Program-made: the position numbers and the translations under genes
Shown: piece after piece, positions 44,299 through 49,168 of the stretch
How positions within the stretch are numbered: the first letter of the stretch is position 1
Layout: each line of letters starts with the position of its first letter
Source: Escherichia coli
Lineage (GTDB): Bacteria; Pseudomonadota; Gammaproteobacteria; Enterobacterales; Enterobacteriaceae
NCBI RefSeq assembly: GCF_036507355.1
Contig: NZ_AP027877.1
Direction: 5' to 3' (one strand)
DNA length: 64,000 nt
Notes under the pieces: generated by a model
The model's input: only the letters and a program-made list of their open reading frames with translations
What the model was told of the DNA's origin: nothing
Database searches by the model: none

Positions 44299-44802
44299 TT
44301 ATTGATAGTGTTTTATGTTCAGATAATGCCCGATGACTTTGTCATGCAGCTCCACCGATTTTGAGAACGACAGCGACTTCCGTCCCAGCCGTGCCAGGTG
44401 CTGCCTCAGATTCAGGTTATGCCGCTCAATTCGCTGCGTATATCGCTTGCTGATTACGTGCAGCTTTCCCTTCAGGCGGGATTCATACAGCGGCCAGCCA
44501 TCCGTCATCCATATCACCACGTCAAAGGGTGACAGCAGGCTCATAAGACGCCCCAGCGTCGCCATCGTGCGTTCACCGAATACGTGCGCAACAACCGTCT
44601 TCCGGAGCCTGTCATACGCGTAAAACAGCCAGCGCTGGCGCGATTTAGCCCCGACATAGCCCCACTGTTCGTCCATTTCCGCGCAGACGATGACGTCACT
44701 GCCCGGCTGTATGCGCGAGGTTACCGACTGCGGCCTGAGTTTTTTAAGTGACGTAAAATCGTGTTGAGGCCAACGCCCATAATGCGGGCTGTTGCCCGGC
44801 AT
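44299..44802 (-). CDS. insB: IS1 InsB (transposase frame)
   Basis: 167-aa ORF ...[42 protein letters not shown]... Confidence 0.85.
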
Positions 44803-44996
44803 CCAACGCCATTCATGGCCATATCAATGATTTTCTGGTGCGTACCGGGTTGAGAAGCGGTGTAAGTGAACTGCAGTTGCCATGTTTTACGACAGTGAGA
44901 GCAGAGATAGCGCTGATGTCCGGCGGTGCTTTTGCCGTTACGCACCACCCCGTCAGTAGCTGAACAGGAGGGACAGCTGATAGAAACAGAAGCCAC
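44721..44996 (-). CDS. insA: IS1 InsA
   Basis: 91-aa [46 protein letters not shown]... Confidence 0.9.
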
Positions 44997-45065
44997 TGGA
45001 GCACCTCAAAAACACCATCATACACTAAATCAGTAAGTTGGCAGCATCACCGGCCTCGCATTTAA

Positions 45066-45911
45066 TTATTCATTTAAAGATTCAAGAAATGTCCAGCCTT
45101 TATGAGTAACATAATACATTTGTCCTTTTGCCCCTCTTTCAATCACAAAATCAAAGGATAACAGTTCGTTAAGTGCGCCCTCCCAACGGGCTACCTCTCT
45201 AGCCGAACTTCCACCAAAGGATTGATTTCCCGCTTGAATATCCGTGCCACCTAAATGCCTTATCACATAAATTGTTCCGCTATCATCGACACATGCCAAT
45301 TTCAGCAAACTGAGTGCATCGGCGGACAAATTACTTTCTGGCAAAGATTGACTTGTATTCGCATCAGGAGAATTGTTAATGGTAGATATAAGAGAAGACA
45401 AATAAGGGCTACTAGAAATAATTATCGAAAGTTGCCTACGGACTTTGTCTTTGAAATCAGATAAGTCATTAAAAGACTCTATCAATCCCTTTTGCATGCA
45501 CTCAATTTTGAACAATTTAAGAGACTCATATTGTTCTCTATCAAGGCTTTCAGGGGCAACAGGCTTTGAGGAAAAGTAAATCATTGCCGGTTTTCCCGCA
45601 TTCAAATGACGGTGAATTTCTTCGACTGTTCCGCTGGCCTCGTTCCCAGTCGGTGAGCCTAGACGAGTCCAAAACACACCGATTAATAAATCACAATCTA
45701 CTAATAATCTTTGATTAATCAACTCCTGAGGCCTAACTCCTAATTCGGGTGATGTATGAGTTTCCCATCCAATTGGTGTCAACATTACTTTTGAACGAGC
45801 TGAATTTATATCATTCCACTCATGGATCATTTCACGAATGACTTGTCTCTCTTCAGCGACATCACCAGGAGAAGCAATCATTACAGGGATAACAGTTGCT
45901 GTGTAAGCCAT
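45066..45911 (-). CDS. Hypothetical protein with DUF4062-like N-terminal domain and an uncharacterised C-terminal domain
   Basis: N-terminus VMIASPGDVAEERQVIREMIHEW ... DCDLLIGVFWTRLGSP ... SGTVEEIHRHLNAGKPAMIYF resembles the DUF4062 pattern as I recall it; GGAGAG RBS 6 nt upstream; visibly AT-rich. Confidence 0.45.
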   Translation of the reverse strand: MAYTATVIPVMIASPGDVAEERQVIREMIHEWNDINSARSKVMLTPIGWETHTSPELGVRPQELINQRLLVDCDLLIGVFWTRLGSPTGNEASGTVEEIHRHLNAGKPAMIYFSSKPVAPESLDREQYESLKLFKIECMQKGLIESFNDLSDFKDKVRRQLSIIISSSPYLSSLISTINNSPDANTSQSLPESNLSADALSLLKLACVDDSGTIYVIRHLGGTDIQAGNQSFGGSSAREVARWEGALNELLSFDFVIERGAKGQMYYVTHKGWTFLESLNE

Positions 45912-45924
45912 AAACTCTCCATAT

Positions 45925-46485
45925 TCAATCGGTAATAGCTGCTACAGTCGCTCTTGAAACGCCATATTGACGCGCTAACGCACTGATACTCAAACCGCTA
46001 TTCTTTTTCTCTAAAATCTCTCTACGGGCTTCTGACGCGATTTTAGGAGGTCTGCCCAATTTCTTACCTTCGGCTTTTGCTCGTGATAGTCCCGCCTGAG
46101 TGCGCTCAATCAGCAGATCACGCTCCATCTCCGCAACCGCGGCGAGCATAGATAATAGCAACTTCCCAGCGGCAGAAGTGAGATCTGTGTTACCAAGCTG
46201 GTGGACAAGAACCTTGATATTACGGTCAGCCAGCGCCCTTACCGTTTGCAGGACGTCAATCGCATCACGCCCCAGACGATCAAGCTTCGCTACCACCAAC
46301 GTTTCACCATCGCGGATTTTATTGAGCATTTCAGAAAATGCTTTACGTTGCATTGCCGGAACCTTCCCGCTAACAACATCGGCAAACCAGTAATCAATTT
46401 GCCACCCAGCCTGCCCAAGCTCCAGCCGTTGGTTCTCAGTATCCTGCTGCGATGTCGAAACACGTCCGTAGCCAAAAGTTGCCAT
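45925..46485 (-). CDS. Small serine recombinase (resolvase/invertase family), about 186 aa
   Basis: From MATFGYGRVSTSQQDTENQ (catalytic Ser region) with a C-terminal helix-turn-helix (LSISALARQYGVSRATV); GGGGAG RBS upstream of the ATG at 46485. The track ORF carries a 23-codon extension. Confidence 0.8.
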   Translation of the reverse strand: MATFGYGRVSTSQQDTENQRLELGQAGWQIDYWFADVVSGKVPAMQRKAFSEMLNKIRDGETLVVAKLDRLGRDAIDVLQTVRALADRNIKVLVHQLGNTDLTSAAGKLLLSMLAAVAEMERDLLIERTQAGLSRAKAEGKKLGRPPKIASEARREILEKKNSGLSISALARQYGVSRATVAAITD

Positions 46486-46507
46486 TGTTATCTCCCCATC
46501 TGACCCC

Positions 46508-46605
46508 TGCCAGAAAACGAGGCCAACATTAGGATGGCCTGCCAGAAAAGCCAAGGCTATTTTTCCAACAGTGTGAAAGCGTGCGATTGGGAGGTGCCAG
46601 AAAAC
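46508..46605. promoter_or_regulatory. Three direct copies of TGCCAGAAAA(C/G) upstream of the recombinase gene, plus a short GGCCA...TGGCC palindrome; candidate recombinase binding or regulatory site
   Basis: Copies read at 46508, 46540 and 46595; the GGCCAACATTAGGATGGCC palindrome lies between the first two. Confidence 0.35.
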
Positions 46606-47460
46606 GGTCGATTGATGACACCATCAAACACTAACAGTGTGCCCCGGCAACGCGCGCCTGCAACGGTTGTCTCGGATGAGCAAAATCTTAGGGTTTTCTC
46701 AGCGACCCCTGACGCGCGGGCACGCACATGCTCACGGGGGCGCGGGCGAGCTATACAGTTGAGGGAGGGGCAACCATAAGCGTGCAATTTTTCAAGCCGG
46801 GGATTCAGCTATAGGCTAACGGTAGAATGCGGCTTGTAGAGGGTTGTGCGCACATACCCAGTACAATCGCATTACTCCACGCGCACAAACCCCGGAGAGC
46901 CGCTTGCGGTGGGGGTTTAAGAGGTACAATTTTTGGTTCGGGTCATAAAGGACTTTTGAGAGCTGACTTAGCTTATTTAAACTGCATTCGTCTTGGCTAT
47001 GGAGACACGAGGCAGCTCAAGTTTTGTTCAAAACTTTGCAATATTTTGGTTCGATCTCATGTTCTCGTGCTAAAGAAATCAGCACTCGATCAAATTTTCA
47101 TTTTTTTTCTGAAACATTGACATACAGCCTAAGCCTTAAGGCACGTAGGGTTGGTCGAAATTTCCCTTTGACAACCTCAATTTAACCTCAAAATCAACCC
47201 TTGTACTGCAAAGAATCCTAACTAGAATGCTGAACATGTAGGGGGGAATCTTATTAACACACCCTATATGTTGTGCTCATGTATAAATGATGGGCATAAA
47301 AAAACCGGAGTCACCTGCGTGAATCCGGTCTATGAAGCATGACCGCCATGAGTCTGCAAACTCATAACGATTGTTAGCCTCACTATCGTTTCTAACGGCT
47401 CGATTGTGCCCGGCTTGGTTGGTTATGTAAACAGTAAGATAAAATCAAAAGGAACGATCC

Positions 47461-48375
47461 ATGCTTATTCAGAAAAAGCGTATTCGAAATATTGATAATT
47501 ACATACCTAACTTTGATGGCCGTGATATCTACATTGCACATTCTTTGCCAGATGCGGGGAAAACGGACTCTATTGGTTTCTCAAGTCAAAGAGCTTTAGG
47601 TGAAGAAGTCCTCCCCAAGATTTTAGGGCCAATAACCAGATTCAATGCTAATGGCAAATCAGTACCTGACAAAACAGCACCTAAAGAAACTGCATACAGA
47701 CAAATTTCATGGACTAGAAAGCAATGGATCGGAGGGGGCGCAACTCAAGAAGTTACTGACACTCGTGAAATTGAGTATAAGCGCTACAAGAGAATCCTCA
47801 CCCCTCCACCAAGCATAGAGTTAAAGATTGTAGAGAATCTTCAAGGGGAGAAGTTGATCATCTCTCCAAAGCTAAGTTTGACAGCTAACAACAAAGAGTT
47901 AGTGGCTCACTGCATTAATCTTTTTTTAGAGCTTTTTGGGTTGTGCGAAACTGTTGACGACCAACTTAATACCATCGTTAAAAGTAAATCTATAAAACTA
48001 AACTGGAGCCTCCTGCCTCAGGGTCAACAGCCTTGGAGTACTATCGGTTCAAAAATCCTTTCAGCTATTAAGATCAGGGGAAAGGGCAATACCGCTGTTG
48101 TTGAAGGCAGACTTGAACTTATCAATAGTAAAAAACCAGATTTCGTAGCGGTTGGGCAAGCTGGGTTCCAAGGCTACGTGATATTTGGGTTCACAGGCCA
48201 AAACATTTACGTGCTAGAAAGCTCACAATGTAATAACGCAACTTATATACTTAACAATAATTGGCAGCAGTTATCCCAGCTAACTAAAGCCGAAATACTA
48301 GACGGAAACTTGCACCATGCCCGTGTCATCCACCGTGTAAACTGGGCAGCAGAAATACTTAAATACTTACCATAA
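47461..48375 (+). CDS. Hypothetical protein (304 aa), no domain recognised
   Basis: ATG preceded by an AAGGAA RBS at about 8-nt spacing; visibly AT-rich; no homologue recognised by eye. Confidence 0.5.
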   Translation: MLIQKKRIRNIDNYIPNFDGRDIYIAHSLPDAGKTDSIGFSSQRALGEEVLPKILGPITRFNANGKSVPDKTAPKETAYRQISWTRKQWIGGGATQEVTDTREIEYKRYKRILTPPPSIELKIVENLQGEKLIISPKLSLTANNKELVAHCINLFLELFGLCETVDDQLNTIVKSKSIKLNWSLLPQGQQPWSTIGSKILSAIKIRGKGNTAVVEGRLELINSKKPDFVAVGQAGFQGYVIFGFTGQNIYVLESSQCNNATYILNNNWQQLSQLTKAEILDGNLHHARVIHRVNWAAEILKYLP

Positions 48376-48888
48376 AGCGCCGGACGCGCGGGAATGAACC
48401 CCCGCGCACTTTCAAACATACCGCAATAGAATCCATAAAGCCCCGTTGGTGGTAAGACAACAAGCGGAGCCTCTGGCGACTACATCACAGTTATGTCAGT
48501 TAGTGAGGCTTATCAGGATGACCATGTACCCAAGGGGAGCGAGGCCGAACCGCTGGCAGAGCTTGCATATGGTCTGCAAGTACCGTGACCACCATAAACC
48601 TGTTTATCCCCTGCGGCGTCTCGCGACAGCGGCAGAACGGGGGCATCGGGCTAAAATGCGCTTCACTAAAAGTTTTTGGGATTGTTTAGAGACAGTGGCT
48701 ACGTCATAGCTTTCAAGTTGAGTCAGTACGTGTTTGACGCTTGGAACTACACGCCGCTATGAGTTAACATCCCAATTACCACTATCAACCACAGCGGCTT
48801 TTTCAAGGGACATAACAGAGCATTTCTTACAGGCAAAAGAGACAGATTTTATTGTCTAACTACCTGTATTGTAAGGAATTTAGTGACT

Positions 48889-48973
48889 TGGTGCCGAAGG
48901 CCGGACTCGAACCGGCACGTATTTCTACGGTTGATTTTGAATCAACTGCGTCTACCGATTTCGCCACTTCGGC
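48889..48973 (-). tRNA. leuX: tRNA-Leu (leuX type, CAA anticodon)
   Basis: Reverse complement reads GCCGAAGTGGCGAAATCGGTAGACGCAGTTGATTCAAAATCAACCGTAGAAATACGTGCCGGTTCGAGTCCGGCCTTCGGCACCA, a cloverleaf with a long variable arm and CCA end. Confidence 0.9.
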
Positions 48974-49168
48974 ACTGAAGAGGTATGCGGAAAACGTTGT
49001 GGATTATACCTGTCGCACGCCACCATGCAAGCGCCAGCTTGCTCGCACCTCGCTAAGTGCTGAAATTTTCAGCATTGCATACAGCGATGTGTAACCTTTG
49101 TCACACTCCAGGCACCCCGCCCTGCCATGCTCTACACTTCCCAGACAACACCAGAGAAGGACCAAAAA

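Follow-up and report, generated by a model that had tools for sequence, protein, structure and literature searches.

The gene and its locus

Contig NZ_AP027877.1 of Escherichia coli (assembly GCF_036507355.1) carries, near the tRNA gene leuX, an open reading frame (ORF) whose 304-aa product resembles, over its full length, a plasmid-encoded protein of Lactococcus that very likely represents the anti-phage system Rhea. We have analysed this ORF within a 64,000-nt stretch of the contig, hereafter the window, to which all coordinates without a locus label refer. The ORF, which is also in the program-made list of reading frames, occupies positions 47461-48375 of the plus strand, stop codon included. 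It starts with ATG, and a Shine-Dalgarno sequence, AAGGAA (47449-47454, plus strand), lies 6 nt before the start codon; the AAGG of this sequence is invariant across eight Enterobacterales loci. RefSeq labels the identical sequence as a hypothetical protein (WP_000908169.1), and the accession WP_000908169 was not found in a literature search.

The GC (guanine plus cytosine) content of the ORF is 0.411, compared with 0.496 for the entire window and 0.53-0.56 on the side of ahr and yjgR. In a comparison of the ORF with seven orthologues from the Enterobacterales, the proportion of differences was 0.57-0.84 for synonymous changes, which amounts to saturation, and 0.07-0.16 for non-synonymous ones; where it could be computed, the ratio of non-synonymous to synonymous substitution (dN/dS) was 0.03-0.06. 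The ORF is under strong purifying selection. Since full-length homologues are also abundant, this ratio shows that we are dealing with a real gene and not with a chance reading frame.

The gene belongs to the accessory genome. The 2.3 kb around it (46800-49100) are 100% identical to several complete E. coli genomes, and yet at least 80% of this region is present in just 90 of 5,426 complete genomes of the species. Neither the single sequence nor a 70-sequence profile of the 304-aa protein gave any match in Pfam, NCBIfam, PHROGs, PADLOC or the sequences of the PDB, and no known catalytic motif was found in the protein. These results agree with a preliminary description of this DNA, which had delimited exactly the same ORF, called it a well-formed gene that is AT-rich relative to its flanks, recognised neither a domain nor a catalytic motif in its translation, and regarded it as accessory.

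Spread of the family and its probable relationship to Rhea

That the gene is an orphan, as the preliminary description also had it, does not hold. Its full-length relatives of about 305 aa make up 722 clusters at 90% identity; at 50% identity we have found 1,311 representatives, and for 265 of these the expectation value (E) is at most 1e-30. A pattern-limited genome scan with a 12-sequence alignment, in which each species was represented by one genome, confirmed 182 stretches encoding relatives. They come from Proteobacteria, Firmicutes, Bacteroidota, Chloroflexi, bacteria of the candidate phyla radiation, Planctomycetes, Verrucomicrobia, Actinomycetota and methanogenic Archaea. Members from E. 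coli, Kosmotoga, cyanobacteria and Methanobacterium are 40-47% identical to one another; because the distribution is sparse and patchy and such identity spans distant taxa, the family appears to have spread by horizontal transfer. Three of the AFDB50 matches (A0A937PUF2, A0A7Y4S1M1 and A0A7V0X868) bear the name 'Restriction endonuclease' in UniProt and AFDB, and no nuclease domain is detectable in them.

Rhea was reported in 2024 as one of seven new systems named after a screen of 198 plasmid candidates (Grafakou et al. 2024, PMC11381338). It consists of one gene encoding 303 aa for which InterPro and HHpred gave no prediction; BLASTP returned eight matches above 70% identity, all from Lactobacillales, and HMMER returned 611, with Kosmotoga sp. 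and Trichocoleus sp. at the top (PMC11381338). It protects against Skunavirus and TP901-1 phages, acts after DNA injection and has a lysis profile like that of abortive infection (Abi) systems (PMC11381338). All escape mutants had changes within the ATPase domain of TerL, the large terminase subunit (Mosterd et al. 2025, PMC12184496). Phage DNA replication, transcription and translation are unaffected by Rhea, and its mechanism is listed as unknown (2026 review, PMC13064643).

The family of the E. coli protein fits these descriptors. LACR_E5, a 303-aa protein encoded on plasmid 5 of Lactococcus cremoris SK11, is 35% identical to the E. coli protein over its full length (304 columns, E 3e-52), and the 90% identity cluster to which LACR_E5 belongs is annotated across Lactobacillales. 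The proteins of Kosmotoga sp. DU53 (P0040) and Trichocoleus/Funiculus (P0068) match the E. coli protein with E values of 5e-88 and 2e-83, and LACR_E5 with E values of 9e-54 and 7e-52, respectively. Moreover, all 399 proteins retrieved match both queries, the E. coli protein and LACR_E5. With its 304 aa and negative searches of the domain libraries, the E. coli protein also agrees with Rhea in size and in the lack of a recognisable domain. The link is indirect, because the comparison was made through LACR_E5 and not with the sequence of Rhea itself (pUCCL617_141); judging from the matching descriptors, LACR_E5 is very likely Rhea or a protein more than 70% identical to it. The E. coli gene would thus be a new member of a known defence family of unsolved mechanism. 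PADLOC and DefenseFinder do not include Rhea (2026 paper, PMC13335696), which explains why the search of the E. coli protein against PADLOC was negative.

On the Lactococcus cremoris plasmids, the Rhea-type gene begins 18 nt after the gene of a 1,560-aa DEAD/DEAH helicase (L091, 301-5912; L094, 1930-7541). By its size and its place on a lactococcal plasmid, this helicase is reminiscent of LlaGI and other type ISP restriction-modification enzymes.

Predicted structure and conserved residues

The AlphaFold2 (AF2) model of the E. coli protein, built with a 70-sequence alignment, is confident and has two domains, with a mean predicted local distance difference test score of 93.7. Its predicted template modelling score is 0.62, which suggests that the two domains are only loosely oriented relative to each other. 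The N-terminal domain (about residues 1-170, encoded at 47461-47970) is predicted to be rich in beta-strands, residues 75-109 forming a long hairpin, and no solved structure resembles it well. The C-terminal domain (residues 174-304, encoded at 47980-48372) is modelled as an alpha/beta sandwich that resembles the C-terminal domain of TnsE, ZorC, YjbR and MotA, all of which bind DNA. Conserved polar residues of the N-terminal domain are N62, E76, Y109, R111, N153 and E157; those invariant in the C-terminal domain are Y239, E253, N259, Y262, K276 and H291, while R288 is nearly so. The polar invariant residues in the two domains exceed what a simple binding module would need.

One could argue that the protein is a restriction endonuclease, either modification-dependent (type IV) or solitary, which cuts the incoming phage DNA. 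We consider this improbable. Searches of Pfam and NCBIfam and a profile search of the PDB found no nuclease motif, domain or family. The stretch 'PDF...LES...K' is the candidate for a PD-(D/E)xK active site, and it was ruled out: the 'PD' dipeptide at residues 226-227 is not conserved, several members having S, N or E in place of D227, and the order of the strands is wrong. There is no consistent methyltransferase partner. Furthermore, the published Rhea leaves phage DNA replication unimpaired and behaves like an Abi system, and phages escape from it through changes in the terminase rather than through loss of modification.

Genomic neighbourhoods of the homologues

The homologues are found next to a variety of defence and mobile genes. 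That of Kosmotoga adjoins an N6_N4 methyltransferase and a ResIII helicase; that of Methanobacterium adjoins SIR2 and HATPase_c_3 genes and an integrase; and on one metagenome contig the homologue stands beside a 1,611-aa enzyme of the Eco57I/SNF2 type. Others are located on small plasmids of Lactococcus, Latilactobacillus and Acinetobacter, and Pectobacterium and Ewingella have the gene with its leader (see below) alone between housekeeping genes. A homologue in Proteus terrae, 50% identical to the E. coli protein, lies within a P2-like prophage between gpV (spike) and gpS (tail completion) on the opposite strand (L005, 8001-8933; L006, 3340-4272). This is the position of a moron, and it implies that the prophage's own terminase is left unharmed by the Rhea-like protein.

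We clustered the neighbours at 80 genome loci. Recurrent neighbours of the Rhea-like gene encode an AAA_21 ATPase (PADLOC AbiLi, E 3.7e-73; 13 loci), a DUF2188 protein of 74 aa (PADLOC candidate PDC-S16, E 4e-40; 13 loci) and a serine recombinase (12 loci); subunits of type I restriction-modification systems, N6_N4 methyltransferases and pairs resembling Gabija also recur. No universal or conserved partner gene was found across these loci, so that an obligate partner is ruled out, and the family is essentially a single-gene, defence-associated unit. Its gene organisation, as distinct from its activity, is therefore that of Rhea.

A group of Lachnospiraceae loci (L043, L044, L047, L050, L054-L056 and L067) has an arrangement of its own, in which an AbiLi-type AAA_21 ATPase gene, the Rhea-like gene and a DUF2188 (PDC-S16) gene follow one another on the same strand. 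Possibly this cluster is a variant with several genes, the Rhea-like protein standing in for a TOPRIM effector. Such an arrangement raises the possibility that the protein is an effector normally paired with an ATPase, as in AbiL and PARIS, and that the solitary copy in E. coli is inactive or depends on a host factor. The Rhea-like gene, directly downstream of the ATPase gene, indeed occupies the place expected of AbiLii or AriB. But the loci all belong to a single set of closely related mobile elements; the ATPase of Sphingobacterium has a partner gene of its own, encoding 198 aa and lying between the ATPase gene and the Rhea-like gene; other loci have the ATPase on the opposite strand; and the majority of the 80 loci have no ATPase. 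As Rhea of Lactococcus also works as a single gene (PMC11381338), we think it unlikely that the E. coli protein needs such a partner.

The leader and a candidate antisense RNA

A conserved non-coding leader of 390 nt (47072-47460, plus strand) travels with the ORF. Between genera in which the synonymous sites of the ORF are saturated, the leader is still 66-82% identical, and thus its sequence must be under selection. Read from the sequence, a candidate promoter for the mRNA, TTGTAC-16 nt-TAGAAT, lies at 47201-47228 on the plus strand; its -10 element, ACTA[G/A]AAT, is conserved, and the promoter is below the threshold of the consensus scan.

On the opposite strand, the leader appears to encode an antisense small RNA (sRNA) of about 100 nt (47298-47396, minus strand), with a predicted 5' hairpin, a terminator hairpin and a U run. 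The consensus scan places a candidate promoter for it, TTTACA-17 nt-CACAAT, at 47403-47431 (minus strand), and both hexamers are conserved in orthologous loci. The GC-rich hairpin of the putative intrinsic terminator is at 47304-47329 (minus strand) and its run of seven U at 47298-47304. With the plus-strand promoter at 47201-47228, the candidate sRNA would be fully antisense to the 5' untranslated region of the mRNA.

The predicted pairing points to the minus strand as the one that is probably folded. The minimum free energy of the candidate sRNA stretch is -41.8 kcal/mol (z -5.35), and the minus strand is about 10-20 kcal/mol lower than the plus strand in six of eight sequences. The share of cells filled by standard pairs is 91% for the minus strand and 70% for the plus strand, a comparison biased by the structure having been derived from the minus strand. 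Among 21 distinct sequences, several pairs in the stem of the terminator have compensatory changes (CG/AU, AU/GC and CG/UA), and those in columns 73/97, 77/93 and 82/88 vary on both sides yet remain paired; the first hairpin hardly varies among these sequences and is uninformative either way. Rfam has no family for the leader or the sRNA, its sole match being a sub-threshold potC. Leader peptides were considered as well: two short ORFs, of 11 and 24 codons, were judged unlikely to encode them, since they lack a Shine-Dalgarno sequence, synonymous changes do not predominate in them, or they are unconserved.

The leader is not confined to the Rhea-like gene. A scan of metagenome contigs found the sRNA core at 35 loci. 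At 24 of these, a Rhea-like ORF begins about 113 nt downstream, as in the window; at the other 11 (L107, L110, L114, L116, L120, L123-L125, L128, L132 and L137), the same position is taken by a gene for an 88-aa CxxC protein (MTIC..HKCCGCAY..), followed by a second gene that encodes either a DUF4062-type protein of 340-353 aa or a protein of 147 aa. Neither the 88-aa protein nor its second-gene partners had a match in PADLOC or NCBIfam. The leader and sRNA also precede cargo of this other kind on a plasmid of Enterobacter asburiae (L102, 3501-4197). Moreover, the 5' 170-200 nt of the leader (window 47073-47270), which hold TTGACAT and repeated AACCTCAA motifs, occur with 75-81% identity on 31 enterobacterial plasmids that lack the ORF, from Klebsiella, Citrobacter, Enterobacter, Kosakonia and Salmonella (matches H72-H86). 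That the same leader stands before varied cargo and on plasmids without the ORF suggests that it behaves as a reusable regulatory cassette.

A conserved minus-strand RNA with its own promoter and terminator, antisense to a leader that is better conserved than the synonymous sites of the ORF, is also what one would expect of a type I-like toxin-antitoxin module, in which the sRNA is the antitoxin and the ORF encodes a toxin that serves mainly to stabilise the island rather than to defend against phages. Three observations make this explanation doubtful. The lactococcal Rhea was cloned alone on a high-copy vector and does not figure with those systems for which slower growth was noted (PMC11381338). 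Many members of the family have an upstream gap of less than 100 nt, which leaves no room for such an RNA. Finally, the occurrence of the leader before unrelated cargo is easier to reconcile with a general regulatory cassette than with a dedicated antitoxin.

The transferable module and the leuX island

The limits of the module can be read from both sides. On the left, homology among the Enterobacterales (E. coli, Enterobacter, Pectobacterium, Serratia, Leclercia and Ewingella) begins abruptly at 47072; on the right, E. coli genomes without the gene match from 48423 onward only. The transferable unit is thus 47072-48422, about 1.35 kb, and comprises the leader, the ORF and a hairpin that follows the stop codon (GCGCGGG...CCCGCGC, 48386-48407, plus strand), the pairing of which is retained with different bases in Pectobacterium.

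The integration site of the island is leuX, the gene for tRNA-Leu(CAA), at 48889-48973 on the minus strand (ARAGORN; Rfam tRNA, 59.4 bits). Contrary to the preliminary description, the ORF does not abut this gene: its stop codon is 513 nt away, and a 466-nt spacer (48423-48888) intervenes. This spacer, a conserved terminal part of the leuX island, forms the right boundary of the module. The spacer and the first 25 nt of leuX are found in 629 E. coli genomes; about 530 of these have, beside the same spacer and exactly at the site of the module, a gene with an AbiJ-NTD4 domain (WP_000594911.1; L099, 4108-4932; L100, 3108-3932; L101, 3108-3932). As both occupy one site in E. coli, the Rhea-like module and the AbiJ-NTD4 gene are alternative cargo, and the end of the leuX island is an exchange point for Abi-type genes.

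To the left of the module lies a cassette of a DUF4062 gene and a serine recombinase gene (45012-46634), divergent from the ORF, in which the gene pair spans 45054-46617. The DUF4062 protein has 281 aa (45066-45911), and its N-terminus matches the PADLOC candidate PDC-S60 (E 1.7e-26); the recombinase is of the Hin/Pin type (45925-46554). The cassette is bounded by 17-nt direct repeats, ACACCATCA[T/A]ACACTAA, and a copy that is 99.6% identical is located at another position in E. coli ETEC4068. The divergent orientation, to which the preliminary description had drawn attention, has no functional meaning, since the recombinase pair is a separate cassette that is present elsewhere without the ORF. 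An invertible switch run by the recombinase was also ruled out: there are no inverted repeats around the module, and the cassette has direct repeats of its own and occurs elsewhere. Directly left of this cassette, the window has an IS1 element (insA and insB frames, 44299-44996), which fits a degenerate, rearranged leuX island without an integrase next to the tRNA gene.

Proposed function

Taking these results together, we propose that the E. coli gene probably belongs to the Rhea family, encoding a stand-alone, two-domain anti-phage protein of about 305 aa within a small transferable module, which lies where a degenerate leuX island is closest to the tRNA gene. One could instead suppose a mobile-element gene with a non-defence role, for example in regulation or lysogenic conversion, since the protein has no biochemical function assigned and no catalytic motif that we recognise, but its neighbourhoods are consistently defence islands and a member of the family has very likely been tested experimentally, so that this is the least probable of the explanations considered here. 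All four alternatives, namely an endonuclease, an ATPase-dependent effector, a toxin and a gene without a role in defence, are less well supported than membership of the Rhea family and a role in defence.

How the protein of the Rhea family may act in E. coli is suggested by the work on Lactococcus. It would act inside the cell after the entry of phage DNA, leave phage DNA replication, transcription and translation unblocked, and interfere at or near DNA packaging. Infected cells would not be rescued at high multiplicity of infection, giving a phenotype like that of abortive infection. From its likeness to the DNA-binding TnsE C-terminal domain, ZorC, YjbR and MotA, we suggest that the C-terminal alpha/beta sandwich could be the sensing or nucleic-acid-binding part, which recognises DNA or a packaging intermediate. 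The N-terminal domain may contribute the effector function or make contact with the terminase. Expression in the Enterobacterales would probably be restrained by the cis-antisense sRNA encoded in the leader.

A broader and more tentative proposal has two parts. The leader, with its promoter region and its cis-antisense sRNA of about 100 nt, might be a portable cassette for interchangeable defence cargo, either a Rhea-like gene or the 88-aa CxxC gene with its second gene; and the Rhea-like protein might be a new late-acting effector against packaging, with an N-terminal domain that has no solved counterpart. The shared leader and its probable antisense sRNA suggest how toxic defence genes could stay silent and be swapped as cassettes.

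Surveys of genomes miss Rhea, as the family is absent from Pfam, PADLOC and DefenseFinder. A large family spanning Bacteria and Archaea, with a natural member in E. coli that is contained in a compact 1.35-kb module, makes the mechanism of Rhea approachable in the best-equipped phage-host system, which offers panels of coliphages, genetics of the terminase and packaging assays in vitro.

Comparison with known systems

The E. coli gene differs from Rhea of the Lactococcus plasmids in several respects. Identity, measured through LACR_E5, is only 35%, and the E. coli gene is chromosomal and situated in the leuX island of a Gram-negative host. Moreover, just 18 nt separate the lactococcal gene from the one before it, so that it cannot have the 390-nt leader and candidate sRNA found in the window.

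At the level of structure, the alpha/beta sandwich DNA binders that the C-terminal domain resembles are the C-terminal domain of TnsE of Tn7 (PDB: 5D16 and 5D17), ZorC, YjbR/DUF419 and the C-terminal domain of MotA. The Rhea-like protein is also similar in size to AbiLii and AriB, the partners of the ATPases in AbiL and PARIS (AAA_21 ATPase and DUF4435 TOPRIM effector), and one clade has the Rhea-like gene after an AbiLi-type ATPase gene. The E. coli gene, in contrast, has no ATPase neighbour, and its protein matches neither the PADLOC models of AbiL and Ari (E up to 1) nor Pfam DUF4435 (E up to 10), and TOPRIM gave no match either.

The leader invites comparison with the control regions of AbiD1 and AbiF and with the RNAs of type I toxin-antitoxin systems. 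There, a conserved upstream region with promoter and terminator accompanies the Abi gene, and AbiF requires such a region for its activity. We claim no sequence similarity to AbiD1 or AbiF, and the regulatory role of the E. coli leader is putative.

Functional parallels come from systems linked to the terminase. Phages that escape Rugutis, like those that escape Rhea, have their mutations within the large terminase's ATPase domain, and Avs is activated by the terminase (PMC12184496, with Avs treated in its discussion). Co-expression of the terminase triggers the toxicity of Rugutis, an effect not reported for Rhea (PMC12184496). Rugutis, with its SEC-C motif, and the Avs proteins, which are STAND NTPases, have no relationship in sequence or domains to the Rhea-like protein. 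Few defence systems besides Rhea have escape mutations that point to the packaging motor of the phage.
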